Source: a virus (taxonomy: Duplodnaviria > Caudoviricetes). Taken from it: 24,561 nucleotides of DNA. Numbering within the stretch: position 1 is the stretch's first letter; the number at the start of each line of letters is the position of its first letter. The notes under the pieces are model-generated. The model was given only the letters and a program-made list of their open reading frames with translations, was not told the origin of the DNA and did not search any database. The DNA lies in IMG/VR virus record IMGVR_UViG_3300030376_000668, positions 1 through 24,561 of that record; one strand, written 5' to 3'. Both the position numbers and the translations under genes were made by a program. Positions 4,871-24,561 of this stretch are shown here, in pieces.

Positions 4871-6495
4871 AACACATTCTCCTCGCGTTCCTCTCGTTGT
4901 GTTAGTCGTCCTGTCGCCTCATTGTAGAACACCTCACATGCCTTGCCTGTCTTGCCAGTGTATCGGTTCTTCAACACACGTAGTACGGTCGTGTTCTTGA
5001 CGATAGGATCATCAGCCTGACTGTTACGCTCTGCACCAATGACTGCATCAGACAGCTGTGCAATCGAGGCAGAGCCACGCAGCATACCCAGACTAGTCAC
5101 TGCACCGTCCTCCAGCTGCTTGCCTTCTGGTCTGCGAAGGTGACTGACAAGGAACATACAGATGTTCATCTCCTGCACGAATGTTCGCAGTTTTGTCATG
5201 ATCATGTCAAGTGCACGGCGTTCGTCCCCGTTACTCTGATCGGACACCAGTATTGATACGTGATCCAGCACGATGAATCTAACGCCAAGTACCTTCACAA
5301 AGTACCGCATCCTGCCCAGTACGTTCTCGATCTCGTTACTGCCGAAGTGTTCCCATAAGAAGACACGGTTCTCGTAGTCCATCGTATCATAGACTAGGTC
5401 GATGTCAGTGTCGTCGTACTCACAGTCTGGTAGGTGAATAGGCTTGTTCAGTTCAAGACCTACGAGTCCACGCATGGTGCGCTCAGGTGTCTCCTCAAGG
5501 AACATCAGACCAAGGTTATCTTCAGACTGCGCCATGATGGAACTGACTATCTCACGTAGTAACGTTGACTTGCCTAGCCCAGAGCCAGCACAGATCGTCA
5601 CAAGCTCTGCCATGCGTATGCCGTACAGGTGCTTGTTCAGTCCCTCGAACGGGTACTGTACCTTGGCCTTGGCTAGTGGCTTCTTGATCAACTCACGTAG
5701 CTCGCCAGCACCTACGATACCTTCGGGTGTGTACGGTTGAGCAGACCACCACGCTTTGGTGTACATCTCTGAGTCGTTGTTGGCTAGGTAATCACACGCA
5801 TCCTTGTAGCCATTGACGTGCTTAACAATCCTAGCCTTGTTACCGAACAGATCAGCACATTCCTTTGCCGCGTTCTGTCCCGGTTCATCAGCATCGAAAC
5901 ATATAACAACAGTCTCAAAGCTGTTCAGCCAGTCGTAGAAGAGACGGCAGTCCTTCGCCGCTGACGTTGCACCGTTGCGTACACTGACAACAGGAAACTT
6001 ACTGCCTGTCATTTGGTGTGCCGCTAACGCATCGTACTCGCCCTCAACAATGGTGACATATTTGCCCCCTTCAGGGAACAGGTGCTGCCCGTACAGCCCT
6101 GCGTTCTTCCAGTCGCCAATGATACTGAACCGCTTGTCAGGATTGCGTACCTTGGCGGCAACAGGCTTAGTCGGATCGTCAGGATCGTAGTAACCAAACG
6201 TCGTAACATCGCCTTGCTTCAGTGCTGAGTACTTCTTCGCTGTCGTCCCAGTGATGAGACGGTCAGTGATGGTACGGTACTCAGCTGTGATAAGACGGTG
6301 CTCAGTCTGACTGAACGATGGCTTGGGTGCGTTGTTGATAGCTCCTAGTTCACGTACGTTTTCTCGTACGCTGTCCTTGGGTGCTGGCGTAAACGTATCA
6401 CAAACAAAACACTTGCTTGACCCGTCGTCGTTGAATGCAAGACCGTCACTGCTTCCGCAGTCTTGACATGGTTGGTGTGTTTCAGTGAATGGCAT
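4867..6495 (-). CDS. Primase-helicase (T7 gp4-like)
   Basis: N-terminal CQDC...CFVC zinc-binding domain; TOPRIM EGEYDA and FDADEPG; SF4 helicase GSGLGKS, LDH, SHLRR, LRGS, KNRYTG. Confidence 0.97.
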   Translation of the reverse strand: MPFTETHQPCQDCGSSDGLAFNDDGSSKCFVCDTFTPAPKDSVRENVRELGAINNAPKPSFSQTEHRLITAEYRTITDRLITGTTAKKYSALKQGDVTTFGYYDPDDPTKPVAAKVRNPDKRFSIIGDWKNAGLYGQHLFPEGGKYVTIVEGEYDALAAHQMTGSKFPVVSVRNGATSAAKDCRLFYDWLNSFETVVICFDADEPGQNAAKECADLFGNKARIVKHVNGYKDACDYLANNDSEMYTKAWWSAQPYTPEGIVGAGELRELIKKPLAKAKVQYPFEGLNKHLYGIRMAELVTICAGSGLGKSTLLREIVSSIMAQSEDNLGLMFLEETPERTMRGLVGLELNKPIHLPDCEYDDTDIDLVYDTMDYENRVFLWEHFGSNEIENVLGRMRYFVKVLGVRFIVLDHVSILVSDQSNGDERRALDMIMTKLRTFVQEMNICMFLVSHLRRPEGKQLEDGAVTSLGMLRGSASIAQLSDAVIGAERNSQADDPIVKNTTVLRVLKNRYTGKTGKACEVFYNEATGRLTQREEREENVL

Positions 6496-6739: not shown

Positions 6740-6927
6740 CCCTTCGGTTCATATACCACCTCTTCTCTGATAACACGGACGCGTTCGCCGTCTGCTTTGT
6801 AACTGTTACAAAAATATTTTGCGTTGTCGAGTGTGCTGTACCAGTCAGACCCGTCAGCACTACGAGCAACCCAGTCACATAAACGCTCGTCCCATTTCTG
6901 TACGTTGTACCATGTATCAATACTCAT
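6736..6927 (-). CDS. Hypothetical early protein (63 aa)
   Basis: Start reassigned to MSIDTW at 6927, behind the AAGGAG RBS inside the 36-bp repeat. Confidence 0.7.
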   Translation of the reverse strand: MSIDTWYNVQKWDERLCDWVARSADGSDWYSTLDNAKYFCNSYKADGERVRVIREEVVYEPKG

Positions 6928-7531
6928 AGTTGATATACTCCTTTTCAATCCTGTCAAGAACCTTTTCAAACCAATCAATTAATCCATCAGGCGTGTACTC
7001 TCTTTGTTTCTGAGTACAACGTACCGTACCCTCCACGTTACCTGCAATGCTGCGGCGCTTTCCCTTTTCACATAAGTGAACGGTGTCGTCCTTTGGCGGT
7101 AGTTGAGGAAGATTTTCAGGCAACACACCAACGATATATAGCTTTGTTTTCTTGTGCGCGACATGGCCAAAATCGTATTGATCCACGTCAACAACAAAGC
7201 CTCCATATATATCAATCTGCCCTGCTTCAGGAAGGTACTTGAACAAACGTGACGCAGAAGGATGCTCAAGTATTCCCCCTTGTTCTCGGACTTTGTTGAC
7301 TGACCAAACCGCTAAAAACTTTTCGTCGTCAATCTGATCCTGAGTCATCTTACCTCCCCTGCCTGCGATATGGCTTAGTTGTCCCCAGAATCTACAGGGC
7401 GGGTGACATACTACAGGGCCGTCGCCTTCATACGTTAGAGCGTTACGGTCAGCGTCGTAAACATCCCAGTGCTGCCGTGTCTTGTAATCTGAATCACGCC
7501 TACAAAACAATGCTGTATATTTAATACTCAT
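6917..7531 (-). CDS. C5-cytosine methyltransferase-like protein (atypical)
   Basis: HPPC (motif IV-like), LEHP (motif VI-like), Q.DFGH..KKT (motif VIII-like); no canonical FxGxG. Start reassigned to MSIKY at 7531. Confidence 0.55.
   Translation of the reverse strand: MSIKYTALFCRRDSDYKTRQHWDVYDADRNALTYEGDGPVVCHPPCRFWGQLSHIAGRGGKMTQDQIDDEKFLAVWSVNKVREQGGILEHPSASRLFKYLPEAGQIDIYGGFVVDVDQYDFGHVAHKKTKLYIVGVLPENLPQLPPKDDTVHLCEKGKRRSIAGNVEGTVRCTQKQREYTPDGLIDWFEKVLDRIEKEYINYEY
6919..6954. repeat. 36-bp direct repeat, copy A (copy B at 7523-7558)
   Basis: aatactcata(g/a)ttgatatactccttttcaatcctgt, 35/36 identical; encodes RIEKEYINYEY and carries the next gene's RBS and ATG. Confidence 0.95.
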
Positions 7532-7721
7532 AATTGATATACTCCTTTTCAATCCTGTTGTAGTCAGCGCAGAGGTCTTCGTACTCCTGTTGAAGAACCT
7601 TCTGCGTGTAGTGTTGCGCCTCAGTCAAACCAAAGTCAATGTCCATCTTGTTTAGTTTACCCAGCGCGTCTTCGATCATATCGATAACATCAGCGAGCGC
7701 ATCTAGTCTGTCGCTGTCCAT
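7521..7721 (-). CDS. Acidic helical hypothetical protein (66 aa)
   Basis: Start reassigned to MDSDRL at 7721, after a GGAGGT RBS. Confidence 0.7.
   Translation of the reverse strand: MDSDRLDALADVIDMIEDALGKLNKMDIDFGLTEAQHYTQKVLQQEYEDLCADYNRIEKEYINYEY
7523..7558. repeat. 36-bp direct repeat, copy B
   Basis: Matches 6919-6954 with one mismatch. Confidence 0.95.
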
Positions 7722-10116: not shown

Positions 10117-10215
10117 TTATTCCTCGTCGTTAGTGAGAGCGTACAGCACAAAGCCTACGCCGGTCGTGGTTAGTAGCAGGACAACGTCCCACCAAGGTTG
10201 CCATTGTTCAAACAT
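10117..10215 (-). CDS. 32-aa single-pass membrane peptide
   Basis: Not in track. MFEQWQPWWDVVLLLTTTGVGFVLYALTNDEE; AAGGAG RBS; fills the gap between its neighbours. Confidence 0.65.
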   Translation of the reverse strand: MFEQWQPWWDVVLLLTTTGVGFVLYALTNDEE

Positions 10216-10357
10216 CGTCTAAAAACTCCTTTAACAGTGCGATCGCCGTTTCAGTATCTTCTCTTTCTAAGGCTTCGCGTACTAAATGGGCATTAACTAT
10301 GGCCTTCCCTAGCGCCACAAACGCTTTTTCATAAGAATCTTTTTCATCGTATGACAT
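10208..10357 (-). CDS. 49-aa helical hypothetical protein
   Basis: Not in track. MSYDEKDSYEKAFVALGKAIVNAHLVREALEREDTETAIALLKEFLDDV; GAGGA RBS. Confidence 0.65.
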   Translation of the reverse strand: MSYDEKDSYEKAFVALGKAIVNAHLVREALEREDTETAIALLKEFLDDV

Positions 10358-10376: not shown

Positions 10377-10392
10377 CGGTAACATGTTACCA
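10377..10392. repeat. Palindromic motif cGGTAACATGTTACCa, copy 3 of 4
   Basis: Exact copy, just 3' (minus sense) of the hammerhead. Confidence 0.95.
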
Positions 10393-10399
10393 GTTTAGG

Positions 10400-10454
10400 T
10401 TTCCGTTTCGTCCGCACAGGACTCGTCAGCACGGCTCTATACCGTGGACGGAAA
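10400..10454 (-). ncRNA. Type III hammerhead ribozyme
   Basis: Minus-strand RNA: UUUCC-GUC | CACGGU-AUAGA-GCCGUG (stem I) | CUGACGA | GUCC-UGUGC-GGAC (stem II) | GAAA-CGGAAA (stem III). All core nucleotides are present; predicted cut between 10447 and 10446. Confidence 0.92.
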
Positions 10455-10475
10455 AGCGCACCTCCGAAGAGGTGC
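10452..10475 (-). terminator. UUCG-capped hairpin, weak intrinsic terminator or 3'-end stabiliser
   Basis: GCACCUC-UUCG-GAGGUGC followed by GCUUUU; the short U-tract overlaps hammerhead stem III. Confidence 0.6.
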
Positions 10476-10497
10476 AAGGCTCTACGGGTTGAGCGGG

Positions 10498-10968
10498 TTA
10501 TACTGACAGCTTGCGCATCTCTTCAGCGATCATTTCGAGCACGCTATCCGGCACTTCGGAAGCGTCAAGCTTTTGCGCAAGTGTAGTCAAGATATCGCGG
10601 GTTTCAGACTCTTCTGTTTCTTCTGTCTCGTGAATGTAAAAACTGCAGATACCGTCTTTCAGGCTGAAGGTTATATCAAGGCCTAAACCGCCTTTCTCAA
10701 TATCCTTTCGCGTCTCTCTGCGTAGGGTTTGTCTCAACACCTTCAATGCTGATTTAGCCTTTCCACCATCCGCGTCATCATGTGCGCGTAATTCCTTAGT
10801 GGCTCGCTTCGCTTGGATGATCTCAACGGCGTCCTTCAGCGTGTCCAATCCGGTCACATTGCCATGCGCGTCAATGTTGATCACTGGTAGGAATGCTCGG
10901 ACGTGGCCAGCGAGTCGACCGTATGCCATTGCTGTGTCTGTGATTTGTCGTGTAGTTGGTAGTGTCAT
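10498..10968 (-). CDS. First early gene, hypothetical (156 aa)
   Basis: Start reassigned to MTLPTT at 10968 (GAGGAGG RBS); first ORF downstream of the sigma54-type promoter. Confidence 0.75.
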   Translation of the reverse strand: MTLPTTRQITDTAMAYGRLAGHVRAFLPVINIDAHGNVTGLDTLKDAVEIIQAKRATKELRAHDDADGGKAKSALKVLRQTLRRETRKDIEKGGLGLDITFSLKDGICSFYIHETEETEESETRDILTTLAQKLDASEVPDSVLEMIAEEMRKLSV

Positions 10969-11008: not shown

Positions 11009-11063
11009 GTAGCGCACCATTTTGGTGCATGGGTAGACTGTCCTCCAGCCTTACCAAATATAG

Positions 11064-11079
11064 TGCAAGCTGCATGCCA
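11064..11079 (-). promoter_or_regulatory. Sigma54 (RpoN) -24/-12 promoter
   Basis: Minus strand TGGCAT-GCAGC-TTGCA versus consensus TGGCAC-N5-TTGCW; exact GG-N10-GC spacing; faces the early genes; predicted +1 near 11053. Confidence 0.8.
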
Positions 11080-11098
11080 CCTATAAAAAATCCTTACA

Positions 11099-11111
11099 AA
11101 TCAATGACTTA
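11099..11111 (+). promoter_or_regulatory. IHF binding site
   Basis: AATCAA-TGAC-TTA matches WATCAA-N4-TTR exactly, with an A-tract 5' of it; about -46 to -58 of the sigma54 start. Confidence 0.75.
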
Positions 11112-11118
11112 CGAGATC

Positions 11119-11226
11119 TGTTACCCTGAAATGATACCGATAAAGTGTTACTTTGTTACCGCTGGTGACACTGTTACTGTTACCGGTAACACTTGGGTAA
11201 CACATTCACGCTGCTTATAGGTAACA
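11119..11226. promoter_or_regulatory. Array of TGTTAC/GTAACA half-sites (candidate enhancer, CbrB-like)
   Basis: TGTTAC at 11119, 11146, 11154, 11172, 11178; GTAACA at 11186, 11197, 11221; variants TGATAC (11132) and GTGACA (11165). Confidence 0.6.
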
Positions 11227-11320: not shown

Positions 11321-11385
11321 CCTATTGAGAATCATTCTTGTTTGCTAATGAGAATCATTCCCGAATGCTAATGAGAATCGTTATC
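11321..11385. promoter_or_regulatory. Three tandem Fur-box-like sites, 23-bp period
   Basis: CCTATTGAGAATCATTCTT, GCTAATGAGAATCATTCCC, GCTAATGAGAATCGTTATC: 13, 15 and 16 of 19 matches to GATAATGATAATCATTATC. Confidence 0.65.
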
Positions 11386-11586
11386 GTTAACTGCACCGGG
11401 GGAGGGGCTGTGTCTGCGGCGATTGCGTGTGTTGCTACTCAGACACAAAAAAGAGTAAAATTAGAACTTAATATAGCCAATAGTTCTAAGCAGATAAACT
11501 GTATAGAAAACAAGGACTTAGTAGTGCAGAATCTGGACCGTGACTGTACAGTTTAAAGGACATTGTAGTCTTGTTTAAAATAATGC

Positions 11587-11615
11587 TTGACAAATCATCA
11601 AAAGTATGGTACAAT
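11587..11615 (+). promoter_or_regulatory. Sigma70-type promoter for the packaging operon
   Basis: TTGACA-17 nt-TACAAT with TG extended -10. Confidence 0.85.
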
Positions 11616-19492: not shown

Positions 19493-22400
19493 ATGACTGA
19501 TTATACTAAGACTACGGACTTTGCTGCAAAAGATTCTTTGCCTTCTGGTGATTCCAATAAGGTTATTCGCGGCACTGAGTTTGACACAGAATTCAACAAT
19601 ATTGCCACAGCTAGTGCTACTAAAGCAGACCTATCTAACCCTAGTTTTCAGGGTGATGTTTCTGTTGCTGGCAATATTTCAGTAAGCGGAACTGTTGACG
19701 GTCGTGATGTAGCTGCCGATGGTACAAAGTTAGACACAGTTGAAACCAATGCAGACGTAACAGACACAGCAAATGTAACTGCTGCTGGCGCTGTAATGGA
19801 CTCTGAGCTAACTGACGAAGCAGCTGTAAAAGCGCTTGACCAAGGTGTTGCTACTACTGACAGTCCTACATTCGCAGGTGCTACACTAGGCGCTGTTACT
19901 TACGCAGCGACTGACGGCACAGACGGACAGGTATTGACAACGGATGGCGCAGGTAATGCGACGTTTGAAGCTCTGCCTGATTCTTTGTATTTAAACGTCA
20001 AGGACTTTGGCGCTACGGGTGACGGCTCAGATCAAACCACGGCTCTTCAAAACGCCATTAATCACGCTTCTACTCGTGGTATTCAAACTATCTTCTTCCC
20101 AGAGGGTCACTACAAGTACACCACTCTGCGTTTCTACCATGACCAAACTGACAACACCGGATTCCAAGGCACTAATGTATATGTTGGTGACGGAACAACA
20201 GATGATTTTAATTTCGGCTGGTACATTGCAGACGCTTCTGACCTTACAGTAACAGTAGAAGGTGTAGAGCAAACACTCAACACTCACTACACAGTATCGG
20301 GCGTTGGTTCTGACACTGGTGGCACTGTTACGTTTACTGCAGGAAATATTCCTTCAGCACCCGCAGGCAGTACTGTTACAAACCGTAAAGGCGATGGAAC
20401 AACGTCAGAGTTTTTCTACAGCGGGACAGTTATACCAGACGCATCTAATGTTTCAGTAACAGTTGATGGTGTCGCTTCAACGCAATTTACAGTTGATATT
20501 GGTAAAAGATTAGTAGTATTTAATGCGGGTCATGAGCCACCTGCTCCTGCTAACCCCAACGATAACAACGTTGTCATTACCATTCAAAAGACGGTTAACA
20601 TTTCGTCTAACAACCGTGATGGTCGTGTTCAACTTCGTGGTACTGGGCGTCTGGCTATTGCAGATCTAGTAGGTCTTGATAAGAACCGTACTCGCATATA
20701 TGGCTCTGTTCTTGAATCTACTGGTGACGGCATCATTATCGACACCGACCAAGAATTCAGCACTCCAGTTGATGCTCGTAACTTTGTAGCGAAAGACTTA
20801 ACGTTCCTTGCAGACAATACGGGGCAGATAATTAAAGCAGAAAAGAATCCGGGCATGTCGTTTGACACCTGTTCTTTCAAGCAATTTAACCCTGCTGGCA
20901 CTGGTTTAGAGGTTCGTAACTGCTGGTTCTTTACAATGAATCAGTGTTATGTCGTGGGTCAGCGGTATCAAGAAACATATACAGGAGATGGCACTCAACA
21001 GACCTTTACTTATACGTTTGATAATCCATCTGCAACAAGCGATATTCTTGTTCAGCTTAACGGTGGTGCGTTAACAGAGACTACCGACTACACCGTAACA
21101 ATGGGGGCTACAAAAACAGTTACCCTAACCTCAGCAGGAGCTACAAAAGTATCCGACGCGATTGCTTTGTCTGGTGCTAAAACAATAAACGTACAAAGGA
21201 TTAATACCGGCGACGGCATTTCTTCTCAGTTCGTTGGTCGTACGTTTGGTAGCTTTGCTGGCCTATGGACTATTACGCAGTCTTTGGTTGATTCTTTTGC
21301 AAACGGTGTTCACTGGACTGGCGGCACTGTTACTAACCTTTCGATTCGTGATACAGCAGTACAAAACTGCGGTAACTACAACATATACGCTGATTCTGGT
21401 GTTATTCAGCAGATGTTGCTTGACAACGTTTATTTTGAAAACCAAAAGACACAGGGTGTTAGCTTTATAAAAGGCGACGGAACTGCGCCTCCCGACAACA
21501 GTGCAGTTATTAGAAATCTACGGATGACTAACTGCTTCATGCTTGGTGGTGGTACTAACCCAAGAGTTACAGGACCGTGTATTGATCTTGATAATGTAGA
21601 TGCTGTTGATATTGAAGGTATGTATGTTTTCAGAGTGCGTCAGTCATTCTTAAATATTACGCGCACTAAGAATTCTCAAGATGTTCCCGGTGAAGTTAAA
21701 AATAGTATTTTCTTAACAAGTTCTGACCAAACTAAATTTTTAGATTTAGAACCAACCGTGTACTTGTTAACGGGTATTCTTCCTAATGCACATAACTGTG
21801 TATGGCCTAGTATAAACGACAGCTTCCACGATACTACTAACAACATTAATTTGTTTGATCCTACAGTTGATGAAGGCTATTTGCGTAGCTCTACTGATTT
21901 TATGGGATCAACTGCCATTTCTAGATTTAGCTTTGGCGACACAACTGTTAGGGCTTTTCAAAACGCAGACTCTAATCAGCCTAATTATTTTACAGGCGCG
22001 TATGAGCTTAATTTTGGACAGGAGTATAAAACTTACTACGACCTGACAACTAACATGTCTGGTGGGTTGGCTGTTTACTTACCTGATACAGGAAACGTAG
22101 GTCAAAGCGAAGTAAATGACGGTCGGCTTGTGATTGTTAAAAACAACGAGGCAAGTACGTCTTCGTTGAATTATCCTTATATTAACGTTTTTAACAGAAG
22201 CAATCCTACTAGCGGTAATCAAATAGCTCAATTAGCTCCCGGACAAACTGGGCTGTTTATTTTTGATTCTCAAGACAGCGAAAAGTTTAAGTTTGTTGGT
22301 CGTACTTTTAATGACAGGATTGACTTATACGACAATGAAAAACTTACCTTTGGTCGTGGAACTTCTTCTGCTGCAGACATGGAGATCTACCACGACAGTA

Positions 22401-24561
22401 CTTCAGGTGAAAGCAGGATTGATACTCTTGCTGGTCTAACGCTTGACGGCATTACCTACCCAACAGCAGACGGCTCTGCTAATCAGGTACTAACTACAGA
22501 CGGCTCAGGTACGCTATCGTTTGCCAATGTATCTGGTGTAGGTATTAACGCAGTAGTAGACGACACTACGCCACAGCTTGGTGGTGATCTTGACCTCAAT
22601 AGTCATGACATTACTGGCACTGGAAACTTAGATTTCACAGGAACTATCAACACAGTCCTTTCTGTAGACGGTACTACGGAAGACGTGTTTATTACTGGTG
22701 GTGCTCCAGCGCTCGAATGGGTAGAGAATGACGCAGGTGCGGGTCGAGTCCGTTCTGCGCTAAGTAATTCTGTCATTTTCCATTCGCACTATGGAGACTC
22801 TACAACTACCTACGGTGGTTATGTCTTGCAGACTAGAGCGTCTGACGGGTCTAACAACCAAGTAGTTTACACGTACGACGCAGGCGCTAATGATCGTCAC
22901 TGGTGGGGTACTAGAACGTCTGGCGATGTGCTTATGCAGCTGGAGTCAGATGGTACCTTTAACGTCCGTGGCGGCGATGTGTCGTTTGAAGACTCTTCAC
23001 TTGTTGAGAAGTTTTACTGGGACGCAAGCACTGCGCGATTAGGTCTGGGAAGAACAAATCCCGCAGAAGAGATTCACATTGATGCGTCAATTCCTACGAT
23101 ACGCTTGCAGGATTCTGACGGCACTGATCAATACGCAAACATCTATCAGTCTGGCGGTACTACTAATATTTATACTCGTAACGGCACTGATTATGGTGAT
23201 TTCTATATTCGTCGCTATAACGGCACTGACTTAGATATTTCGTTCCGTGTACAAAACAACGGCGACATTATCTTTTATGGAGATGATGGCTCGACACAAG
23301 GCGTTAAATTTGACGCAAGCACCAATCGACTTGGCATAGGTACTACGCTGCCTAGCACAACCTTAGATGTTGCGGGGACTGTCACTGCAAATGATTTAAC
23401 TCTGTCAGATACACAGCCAGTATTAAAACTAGAGGACTCTGACGGCACTAATCAAACGCTAGAGGTACTTACGTCAGCAGGAGCGTCATTTTTGACTGCC
23501 CGAAACGGTTCTTCAAATGGAACAATTAACCTGCGTCGAACTGATGGCACTACCACTAAAAGAACTATGCAAGTGCAATCGTCAGGTGACATTGCTATCT
23601 ATGCAGACGACGGCACGACAAAAGCCCTCTACTGGGACGCAAGCACTTCACGGTTAGGTCTGGGTATTACGAATCCAGCTTACGAGCTTGATGTATACAG
23701 CACTATCCACATTGGAAACGACGGAGGCTCTGGCTTTTCCCATTCACGTTTGATACTAGACTCTAACGGTGCTGGTCGTGGGGCAGGAATATTTAGTCAC
23801 AACCAAGTAAATGATACAGAGTGGTTCTTTGGTAATCCCTATGACACTCCTGATTCATTTGCTATCAACAGACTGGCAACGGCCTCGCATTCAGATGCTA
23901 CCGCAAACAAGACCAACTCATTAGTCACTGTTAATAGCTCTGGCAATGTTGGTATAGGTGTCGTCCCAGAAACAGATTGGCACAGTAATTATACCGCTCT
24001 TCAGGTAAATACTGGCGGCGCATTAGCTTCTTACGCCAGCGGAACGACGTTCGGAACTGCTATATCAACGAACCAAAGAACAACTGGCGATACGTTTGTT
24101 AATGGTAATAAGTACATAGCAAATGCGGCGGCTCAGTTATACCTACAAGATAACGGCGGCAACCACATTTGGTATAACGCCGCATCAGGAACAGCAGACG
24201 CAACAATAAGCTGGAATGAGCGTATGCGTATCACAAGCTCTGGCAACTTGCTGGTTGGTAAGACTGGTTCAGCCTTTGGCACAGCAGGTACAGAGCTACA
24301 AGCTGACGGCGCTGTAACGATTACACGAAGCGGCTCTACTGGTGGCACTCCGTTCTTTGTAAATCGACTGGCTAATGACGGCGAACTTGCGGCGTTTTAC
24401 AAGGACACAGTTCATGTCGGTAGTATTCGCAGTCGTAGTGGCCTTGTAAGCACGATTATTTTAGACCCTCGAAGCGACGGCTCGGGCTTGACTGGTTCGA
24501 CTAATGGCCTGTTGCCAGTTGATGAAAATGGAAGTATATCAGACGATGGTATCGATTTAGG
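19493..24561 (+). CDS. Large tail fibre/tailspike (>1,680 aa, runs off window) with pectate-lyase-like beta-helix
   Basis: Not in track because it has no stop; I read this frame open to the window end. N-terminal anchor MTDYTKTTDFAAKD..I.G.EFD.EFN.I; NVKDFGATGDG..FFPEGHY beta-helix start; GNVGIG, ERMRI.SSGN and WDAST.RLG.G fibre repeats. Confidence 0.9.
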   Translation, partial: MTDYTKTTDFAAKDSLPSGDSNKVIRGTEFDTEFNNIATASATKADLSNPSFQGDVSVAGNISVSGTVDGRDVAADGTKLDTVETNADVTDTANVTAAGAVMDSELTDEAAVKALDQGVATTDSPTFAGATLGAVTYAATDGTDGQVLTTDGAGNATFEALPDSLYLNVKDFGATGDGSDQTTALQNAINHASTRGIQTIFFPEGHYKYTTLRFYHDQTDNTGFQGTNVYVGDGTTDDFNFGWYIADASDLTVTVEGVEQTLNTHYTVSGVGSDTGGTVTFTAGNIPSAPAGSTVTNRKGDGTTSEFFYSGTVIPDASNVSVTVDGVASTQFTVDIGKRLVVFNAGHEPPAPANPNDNNVVITIQKTVNISSNNRDGRVQLRGTGRLAIADLVGLDKNRTRIYGSVLESTGDGIIIDTDQEFSTPVDARNFVAKDLTFLADNTGQIIKAEKNPGMSFDTCSFKQFNPAGTGLEVRNCWFFTMNQCYVVGQRYQETYTGDGTQQTFTYTFDNPSATSDILVQLNGGALTETTDYTVTMGATKTVTLTSAGATKVSDAIALSGAKTINVQRINTGDGISSQFVGRTFGSFAGLWTITQSLVDSFANGVHWTGGTVTNLSIRDTAVQNCGNYNIYADSGVIQQMLLDNVYFENQKTQGVSFIKGDGTAPPDNSAVIRNLRMTNCFMLGGGTNPRVTGPCIDLDNVDAVDIEGMYVFRVRQSFLNITRTKNSQDVPGEVKNSIFLTSSDQTKFLDLEPTVYLLTGILPNAHNCVWPSINDSFHDTTNNINLFDPTVDEGYLRSSTDFMGSTAISRFSFGDTTVRAFQNADSNQPNYFTGAYELNFGQEYKTYYDLTTNMSGGLAVYLPDTGNVGQSEVNDGRLVIVKNNEASTSSLNYPYINVFNRSNPTSGNQIAQLAPGQTGLFIFDSQDSEKFKFVGRTFNDRIDLYDNEKLTFGRGTSSAADMEIYHDSTSGESRIDTLAGLTLDGITYPTADGSANQVLTTDGSGTLSFANVSGVGINAVVDDTTPQLGGDLDLNSHDITGTGNLDFTGTINTVLSVDGTTEDVFITGGAPALEWVENDAGAGRVRSALSNSVIFHSHYGDSTTTYGGYVLQTRASDGSNNQVVYTYDAGANDRHWWGTRTSGDVLMQLESDGTFNVRGGDVSFEDSSLVEKFYWDASTARLGLGRTNPAEEIHIDASIPTIRLQDSDGTDQYANIYQSGGTTNIYTRNGTDYGDFYIRRYNGTDLDISFRVQNNGDIIFYGDDGSTQGVKFDASTNRLGIGTTLPSTTLDVAGTVTANDLTLSDTQPVLKLEDSDGTNQTLEVLTSAGASFLTARNGSSNGTINLRRTDGTTTKRTMQVQSSGDIAIYADDGTTKALYWDASTSRLGLGITNPAYELDVYSTIHIGNDGGSGFSHSRLILDSNGAGRGAGIFSHNQVNDTEWFFGNPYDTPDSFAINRLATASHSDATANKTNSLVTVNSSGNVGIGVVPETDWHSNYTALQVNTGGALASYASGTTFGTAISTNQRTTGDTFVNGNKYIANAAAQLYLQDNGGNHIWYNAASGTADATISWNERMRITSSGNLLVGKTGSAFGTAGTELQADGAVTITRSGSTGGTPFFVNRLANDGELAAFYKDTVHVGSIRSRSGLVSTIILDPRSDGSGLTGSTNGLLPVDENGSISDDGIDL

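Follow-up and report, generated by a model that had tools for sequence, protein, structure and literature searches.

A type III hammerhead ribozyme and an RNase III-like hairpin at the same early gene junction of related phages

A hammerhead ribozyme between gene 1 and gene 2 of an early phage operon raises the question of what a self-made cut at that point is for. Hammerheads have been reported in phage and prophage intergenic regions since 2011 (PaP3, Bcep176, haloviruses HF1/HF2 and prophage clusters), and processing of polycistronic RNA has been proposed for them, with an HF1/HF2 transcript end lying within 3 nt of the cut (PMC3088659, in excerpt). The biological role that self-cleaving ribozymes play in bacteria and phages has been called largely elusive, polycistronic processing having only been suggested (PMC6765202 and PMC3088659, both in excerpt). 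The locus studied here lies in the window, by which we mean the whole stretch of DNA analysed, a 24.6-kb viral record that is 67% complete.

Sequence, fold and setting of the hammerhead

The features of the junction and its surroundings are collected in the table below. The hammerhead was read on the minus strand as the stem III 5' strand (10454-10448), C17 (10447), stem I (10446-10441/10435-10430; 6 bp, loop AUAGA), the core CUGACGA (10429-10423), stem II (10422-10419/10413-10410; 4 bp, loop UGUGC), GAAA (10409-10406) and the stem III 3' strand (10406-10400), which gives a stem III of 7 bp. The type III core is complete (C3 U4 G5 A6 N7 G8 A9, G12 A13 A14, A15.1-U16.1, H17), G10.1-C11.1 is present, and stems I and II are closed by loops while stem III is open. 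The predicted cut falls between 10447 (C17) and 10446, 11 nt 3' of the 7-bp UUCG hairpin. The full hammerhead descriptor matched once in the window versus no match in 2000 first-order Markov windows. A preliminary description of this DNA had placed a full hammerhead at the gene 1/gene 2 junction in the sense of both genes, with a UUCG hairpin about 10 nt before the cut and a 5'-OH end at 10446; the sequence and the RF00008 match confirm the element and the hairpin (10475-10458), and the hammerhead coordinates give the same 5' end.

Features of the gene 1/gene 2 junction and its upstream region in the window
Feature	Position	Strand	Description	Basis
Sigma-54-type -24/-12 motif	11064..11079	-	Likely promoter of gene 1 and the ribozyme	Sequence match to the consensus
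Gene 1	10498..10968	-	156 aa from Met with ribosome-binding site; candidate operator-binding regulator	
Linker	10482..10497	-	Directly after gene-1 stop; nearly invariant in both alleles	
Upstream hairpin	10458..10475	-	7 bp, UUCG loop; probably shields the 3' end of the gene-1 fragment; weak terminator by its score in the window allele	
Type III hammerhead ribozyme	10400..10454	-	Canonical core, GUC triplet	Sequence, RF00008, isolated MFE, Markov control
Palindrome	10378..10391	.	Perfect, 14 bp, 9 nt downstream of the ribozyme; likely DNA operator	
Gene 2	10208..10357	-	49 aa; its start codon lies 89 nt beyond the predicted cut; gene at this position differs among relatives	

A comparison with Rfam had been proposed earlier as a check. 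The Rfam type III family RF00008 (clan CL00010) matched 10400-10454 over all 54 model positions with 42.3 bits (in a search of 181 nt at E 2.2e-8, in the whole record at E 6.9e-10), with which the element shares the full core, the GUC triplet, the closed stems I and II and the open stem III. It differs from the family in scoring below the gathering score of 48.5, which is a curation cut-off and not a mechanistic feature, and in a loop 2 without the common 3' A (PMC2632901, in excerpt); the whole-window Rfam scan reported no hammerhead, and likewise none at the sister-lineage locus L014. Hammerheads of close relatives scored 41.7-44 bits. A common tertiary contact of hammerheads joins a loop-1 U to the loop-2 3' A (PMC2632901, in excerpt), and it is missing in the window hammerhead because loop 2 ends in C. 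The loop-2 5' U and the loop-1 3' A are invariant in 8/8 hammerhead versions of the junction and possibly form the contact in swapped orientation. By every structural feature that could be checked the window element is a type III hammerhead, short of the Rfam cut-off and with a putative tertiary contact.

Folded alone (55-58 nt), the hammerhead had the active fold as its MFE structure, yet with a z-score of only -1.7 and a different centroid. In a 141-nt context the MFE was a misfold in which stem I extends into the core, aided by the C7 of the window phage. The probability of the active secondary structure at 37 C, in a model that leaves tertiary contacts outside, was 0.004-0.06 in the window and up to 0.38 in the hammerheads of relatives, and it fell to 0.0004 in the window when 60 nt of coding sequence was added. 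Phage hammerheads self-cleave in vitro and in E. coli (PMC3088659, in excerpt). One metatranscriptome matched at 6% of words, and its contigs come mostly from relatives. The single contig that spans gene 1 leaves out 10395-10498 and runs through the non-coding control region as well; it may therefore derive from DNA.

The minus strand of the window encodes a T7-like primase/helicase, DNA polymerase and exonuclease, and on the plus strand lie the genes for terminase, portal and capsid. A scan of 33 proteins from this 67% complete record returned no RNA polymerase, so T7, named in the preliminary description, serves here as an analogy and not as a relative. A search for cultured relatives returned no DNA match among 50,697 phage records; the best protein matches in cultured phages were 35% for the capsid and 51% for the DNA polymerase (pelagiphage HTVC103P). 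Directly after the capsid gene lies an open-ended ORF (19493-24559; at least 1689 aa) with no Pfam or PHROG match, and a strong sigma-70-like promoter (11587-11615, plus strand) stands ahead of the late genes. Within the early arm, sigma-70-like promoters were spotted by eye at 9725-9697 and 6739-6711 (minus strand), and a 36-nt direct repeat (97%; 6919-6954 and 7523-7558) flanks one 204-aa gene, which suggests a recently inserted or excisable cassette. No convincing internal promoter was found for gene 2.

Gene 1 had no Pfam, PHROG or Atlas match, and a profile search returned nine matches. Two structure models were obtained (pLDDT 43 for the first, 78.9 for the second), and the second matched no viral fold at E<=0.001. 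The gene was absent from 5/5 near-complete relatives in a search run without a positive control. The 14-bp palindrome occurs in four exact copies at early gene junctions (10994, 10378, 9761, 8721), and its type switches with the gene-1 lineage, being GGTAACATGTTACC in the window, CTAACATGTTAG in L173/L174 and TTGTAANNTTACAA in L014/L033/L138; L027 retains a single site like those in the window. It is possible that gene 1 is an operator-binding regulator of no known family.

The control region was compared with sigma-54, IHF, NtrC and Fur consensus motifs. The sigma-54-type motif is the only exact match in the window (matches at one mismatch occur at chance level), and its GG and TGCA are retained in relatives while the spacer varies. 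An IHF-like site (11099-11111) lies 20 nt further upstream and is also retained in relatives. The two motifs would point to a proteobacterial, probably gammaproteobacterial, host. An NtrC-like box (11029-11013, minus strand) is found upstream of the IHF site in several relatives, the pattern by itself being at chance level, and eight TGTTAC half-sites occupy 11119-11226 (TGTTAC enriched, 38 vs 19.75). TGTTAC is a reported subsite of the Pseudomonas activator CbrB (PMC6296734, in excerpt). The whole set at 11013-11226 suggests nutrient-gated early transcription. At 11321-11390 three tandem 23-nt repeats agree with 13-16 of the 19 positions of the Fur box and include the window's best matches to it, and more distant relatives (L076, L081, L085, L089, L094) carry two to three tandem sigma-54-like motifs 265-370 nt from the small-terminase start.

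Alternation with an RNase III-like hairpin among relatives

Relatives of gene 1, taken together with the window, gave 16 distinct versions of the junction once identical copies had been merged; L166 (contig ends) and L173/L174 (other palindrome) were left out of the count. Eight of the 16 carry the hammerhead and eight a long hairpin. Among the hammerhead versions 7 of 55 positions vary, namely one in loop 1, two in loop 2, N7, U4 (as U4C), a U.G/U-A pair atop stem I and the outermost pair, and no internal pair is broken. The covariation check suggested earlier found no compensatory double change in this family, while the hammerheads of a sister lineage do covary (see below). U4C was present in 2/8 of the window-family versions; this change lowers activity in vitro yet supports viroid infectivity (PMC3088659, in excerpt). 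Nucleotide identity to the window is 90-94% in the slot vs 76-89% in gene 1, a pattern that fits either selection or recent exchange by recombination.

The other eight versions keep the post-stop linker, the upstream hairpin and the palindrome, and an unrelated hairpin fills the slot. This hairpin (e.g., that of L006) is 44 nt long, with 20 positions that form 18 pairs and two 1x1 mismatches (z -4.7; no Rfam match up to E 10). The two alleles are interspersed on the gene-1 tree (16 rows, with the partial L151 left out and L149 and L150 as two rows), where three changes are needed, at least two of them forced by well-supported branches, and 0/200 bootstrap trees gave a single change; the alleles are still more clustered than in shuffles (13 and 19 of 500). 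The hairpin allele also stands behind a 46%-identical gene 1 in L173/L174.

The top pairs of the alternative hairpin, read from the loop down (C-G, U-A, U-G, A-U), are those of R1.1 in the T7 record. Rules for RNase III sites ask for at least 11 bp and a UA/UG distal box; at proximal positions 2 and 4 a G-C pair is an antideterminant, and a G-U in the middle box enhances cleavage (PMC1540722, in excerpt). One register of the hairpin agrees with all of these rules, which hold for E. coli and were applied in the proximal box to positions 2 and 4, and its length suffices, with at least 11 bp from cut to loop and ~20 bp in total. The predicted 3' cut falls at the C.C mismatch 13 nt past the loop, as does the R1.1 cut at 5887; the other cut predicted for L006 lies 9 nt after the upstream hairpin. 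As a control, 17% of pair-shuffles of the hairpin yielded some passing register, and identity of the top four pairs arose in 0.076% of shuffles, a post hoc figure. The boxes of RNase III sites have degenerate sequences that lack conservation between species (PMC3867540 and PMC5371410, both in excerpt).

An out-of-sample set was formed from the 54 of 80 fetched terminase-anchored loci that have an early arm of at least 2.5 kb. A long hairpin with an R1.1-like top, C-G or U-A being allowed as the last pair, was found on the sense strand of 14/54 early arms vs 0/54 on the other strand, and five control tops were found 0-1 times each in the same arms. One of the 14 is the allele itself and 13 belong to two unrelated hairpin families; in 5/5 loci inspected the hairpin lay directly before or after the first early gene. 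None of the four hammerhead loci within the 54 had such a hairpin, and 36/54 early arms had neither element.

A sister lineage, in which gene 1 is 26-28% identical, has another, different type III hammerhead ahead of gene 1 (RF00008, 38.3 bits), placed after a hairpin and ~10 nt before that lineage's own palindrome. Between L014 and L138, two of its four versions, six compensatory stem-pair changes were counted by eye, and the loop-loop pairing covaries as well (GCC:GGC to GCU:AGC, likewise counted by eye). U4C occurs in 2/4 hammerheads of this family. A MAFFT alignment of both families came out of register and was left out of the pair counts. In the same lineage (L137 3480-3900; L136; L138 2150-2380) a sigma-70-like promoter is followed by a ~200-450-nt non-coding leader with repeated CCATCAC and ACGGA motifs, which the hammerhead would release as a separate RNA. 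Rfam matched only the hammerhead in these leaders, and as speculation the leader might act as a protein-binding decoy RNA.

Across the clade the descriptor found hammerheads in 4/80 terminase-anchored loci, many of them without an early arm. RF00008 matched 4/50 records (one weakly) and 0/7 near-complete ones, counts that are lower bounds because three descriptor-positive records were missed. The ribozyme is thus an option in this clade and not a requirement. Pattern scans for a hammerhead with a palindrome returned 18 loci, ten of them from this clade; among the eight others, L120 and L121 hold real-looking hammerheads of other phages, with two type III hammerheads within ~5 kb.

Termination, cleavage and competing readings of the junction

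The upstream hairpin is present in both alleles, which differ in one of its pairs (A-U to G-C) and in its loop. Its U tract had been described as stem III's 5' strand; it consists of only four U (10455-10452), starts 2 nt after the hairpin stem and has three of the four within stem III. Terminator scores were -37/-22 for the window hairpin, +8.3 for the hairpin allele, +3.2 for T7 TE and -82 for the sister lineage, and a loose terminator scan marginally listed the window hairpin as terminator-like. Because of these scores, read-through past the window hairpin is likely, and the other allele perhaps combines a leaky terminator with an RNase III site. Both alleles would leave gene-1 RNA with nearly the same 3' end. 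A cyclic phosphate leaves RNase II and RNase R largely unaffected (PMC10250234, in excerpt), and therefore 3' protection would rest on the hairpin. Both alleles keep the hairpin with compensatory changes, and this fits the 3' protection of gene-1 mRNA proposed earlier.

We consider it likely that the hammerhead cuts the early transcript constitutively after gene 1, in a slot where close relatives have a predicted RNase III site. Transcription would start, most plausibly, at the sigma-54-type promoter ~100 nt upstream of the gene-1 start, the polymerase would mostly read through the weak UUCG hairpin, and cleavage at 10447/10446 by the ribozyme would follow. The upstream product would be a gene-1 mRNA ending in the hairpin and an 11-nt tail with a 2',3'-cyclic phosphate, and the downstream product would carry a 5'-OH directly on stem I and a leader of 89 nt before gene 2. 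Selection would act on the cut as such, by which gene 1 is uncoupled from the genes downstream, and not on the chemistry of the ends. Since about half of the close relatives have a predicted RNase III hairpin at the same spot, the spot likely splits the early message either way. The notion of a protein-free form of early mRNA processing, put forward in the preliminary description, gains comparative support from the predicted RNase III site in 8/16 junctions and from similar ones at the start of the early arm in two other families of the clade. What was observed is the sequence, its Rfam match, its conservation, the exchange of alleles and the resemblance to R1.1; transcription, read-through, a cut by either route and any effect on stability are deduced.

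Other readings of the junction start from the same elements. The slot could be mainly a 3'-end former for the gene-1 mRNA, the alleles differing mostly in the amount of downstream RNA; the hairpin allele would then combine a leaky terminator with RNase III trimming, and the hammerhead allele would have lost the U tract and use the ribozyme to make the same 3' end. The positive score of the hairpin allele, like that of T7 TE and set against the negative window scores, is in keeping with this, as are the closely spaced ends (termination 7-9 nt vs ribozyme cut 11 nt after the same hairpin) and the listing of the window hairpin by the loose scan. We regard it as unlikely. Against it, in the L014 lineage an A-run follows the hairpin that precedes the hammerhead (score -82), and this hairpin sits upstream of gene 1; R1.1-like hairpins in L047 and L063 also precede the first gene. 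The preliminary description had instead seen the point of the ribozyme in its 5'-OH end, which would shield the downstream mRNA from 5'-monophosphate-dependent decay by RNase E. RNase III leaves 5'-phosphate ends, and this weakens the 5'-OH as the selected feature, because the alternative allele, i.e., half of the junction versions, would yield a 5'-monophosphate. RNase E does cut 5'-hydroxylated substrate inefficiently and E. coli apparently has no kinase for hammerhead-made 5'-OH ends (cited there as unpublished), but direct, 5'-end-independent entry is a major RNase E route (PMC4191395, in excerpt). The 3' product does start on a stem, and we nevertheless hold the shield to be quite unlikely as the reason for keeping the ribozyme.

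A regulated switch, in which gated cleavage frees the gene-2 ribosome-binding site or waits while gene-1 protein on the palindrome stalls the polymerase with stem III buried, seems very improbable. The MFE structure pairs the post-stop linker with the gene-2 SD, and the palindrome, whose type tracks the gene-1 lineage, lies within ~10 nt after the RNA element in three lineages. Against this, DNA binding by gene 1 is putative, the linker/SD pairing shows no covariation, and cutting eases SD opening by 0.6-4.5 kcal/mol in 5/7 versions and worsens it in 2/7 (37 C); cleavage-gated translation of gene 2 was rejected as inconsistent. The least probable reading makes the ribozyme a passenger, near-neutral or with hardly any activity, that recombination has spread. 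The predicted misfolding in context, U4C in 2/8 window-family and 2/4 sister-family versions and the patchy occurrence in the clade would all suit a passenger, but the variation spares internal pairs and every core position except U4 and N7, and at the start of the early arm there are two distinct families of hammerheads and three of R1.1-like hairpins.

The junction beside known phage hammerheads and T7

T7 early RNA is processed at five sites. At R1.1 the cut lies between early genes beside a protective hairpin (PMC1540722, PMC3867540 and PMC8708148, all in excerpt), as we infer for the window, and the alternative allele shares the top four pairs and the register of R1.1. The window element differs in being protein-free and in leaving a 5'-OH and a cyclic phosphate, the alternative hairpin has two 1x1 mismatches and not the asymmetric loop of R1.1, and the window phage, unlike T7, has divergent arms and no RNA polymerase in the window. 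In comparison to the phage hammerheads of PMC3088659 (in excerpt), the window ribozyme is likewise intergenic, on the sense strand and in the early region; it is a single ribozyme and not a cluster, and it alternates with an RNase III-like hairpin. What is new here is this natural swap between a hammerhead and an RNase III-like site; the ribozyme alone is ordinary. Dataset S1 of PMC3088659 may list related sequences. No published natural hammerhead/RNase III allele swap was found in the open-licence literature.

We tentatively propose, as a reading that falls somewhat short of an even chance, that the ribozyme and the host-protein site are interchangeable alleles of one locus, repeatedly recombined within one phage population, and that the choice of allele determines the dependence on the host, the chemistry of the 5' end and how far a sigma-54-driven early operon is read through. 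The two cassettes (~95-110 nt) have the same flanks on either side and different cutting devices, and therefore both the processing idea and the role of the 5'-OH can be tested by one reporter swap. If the proposal is true, the interchangeable alleles would amount to a controlled experiment run by nature, one that shows phage hammerheads substituting for RNase III.
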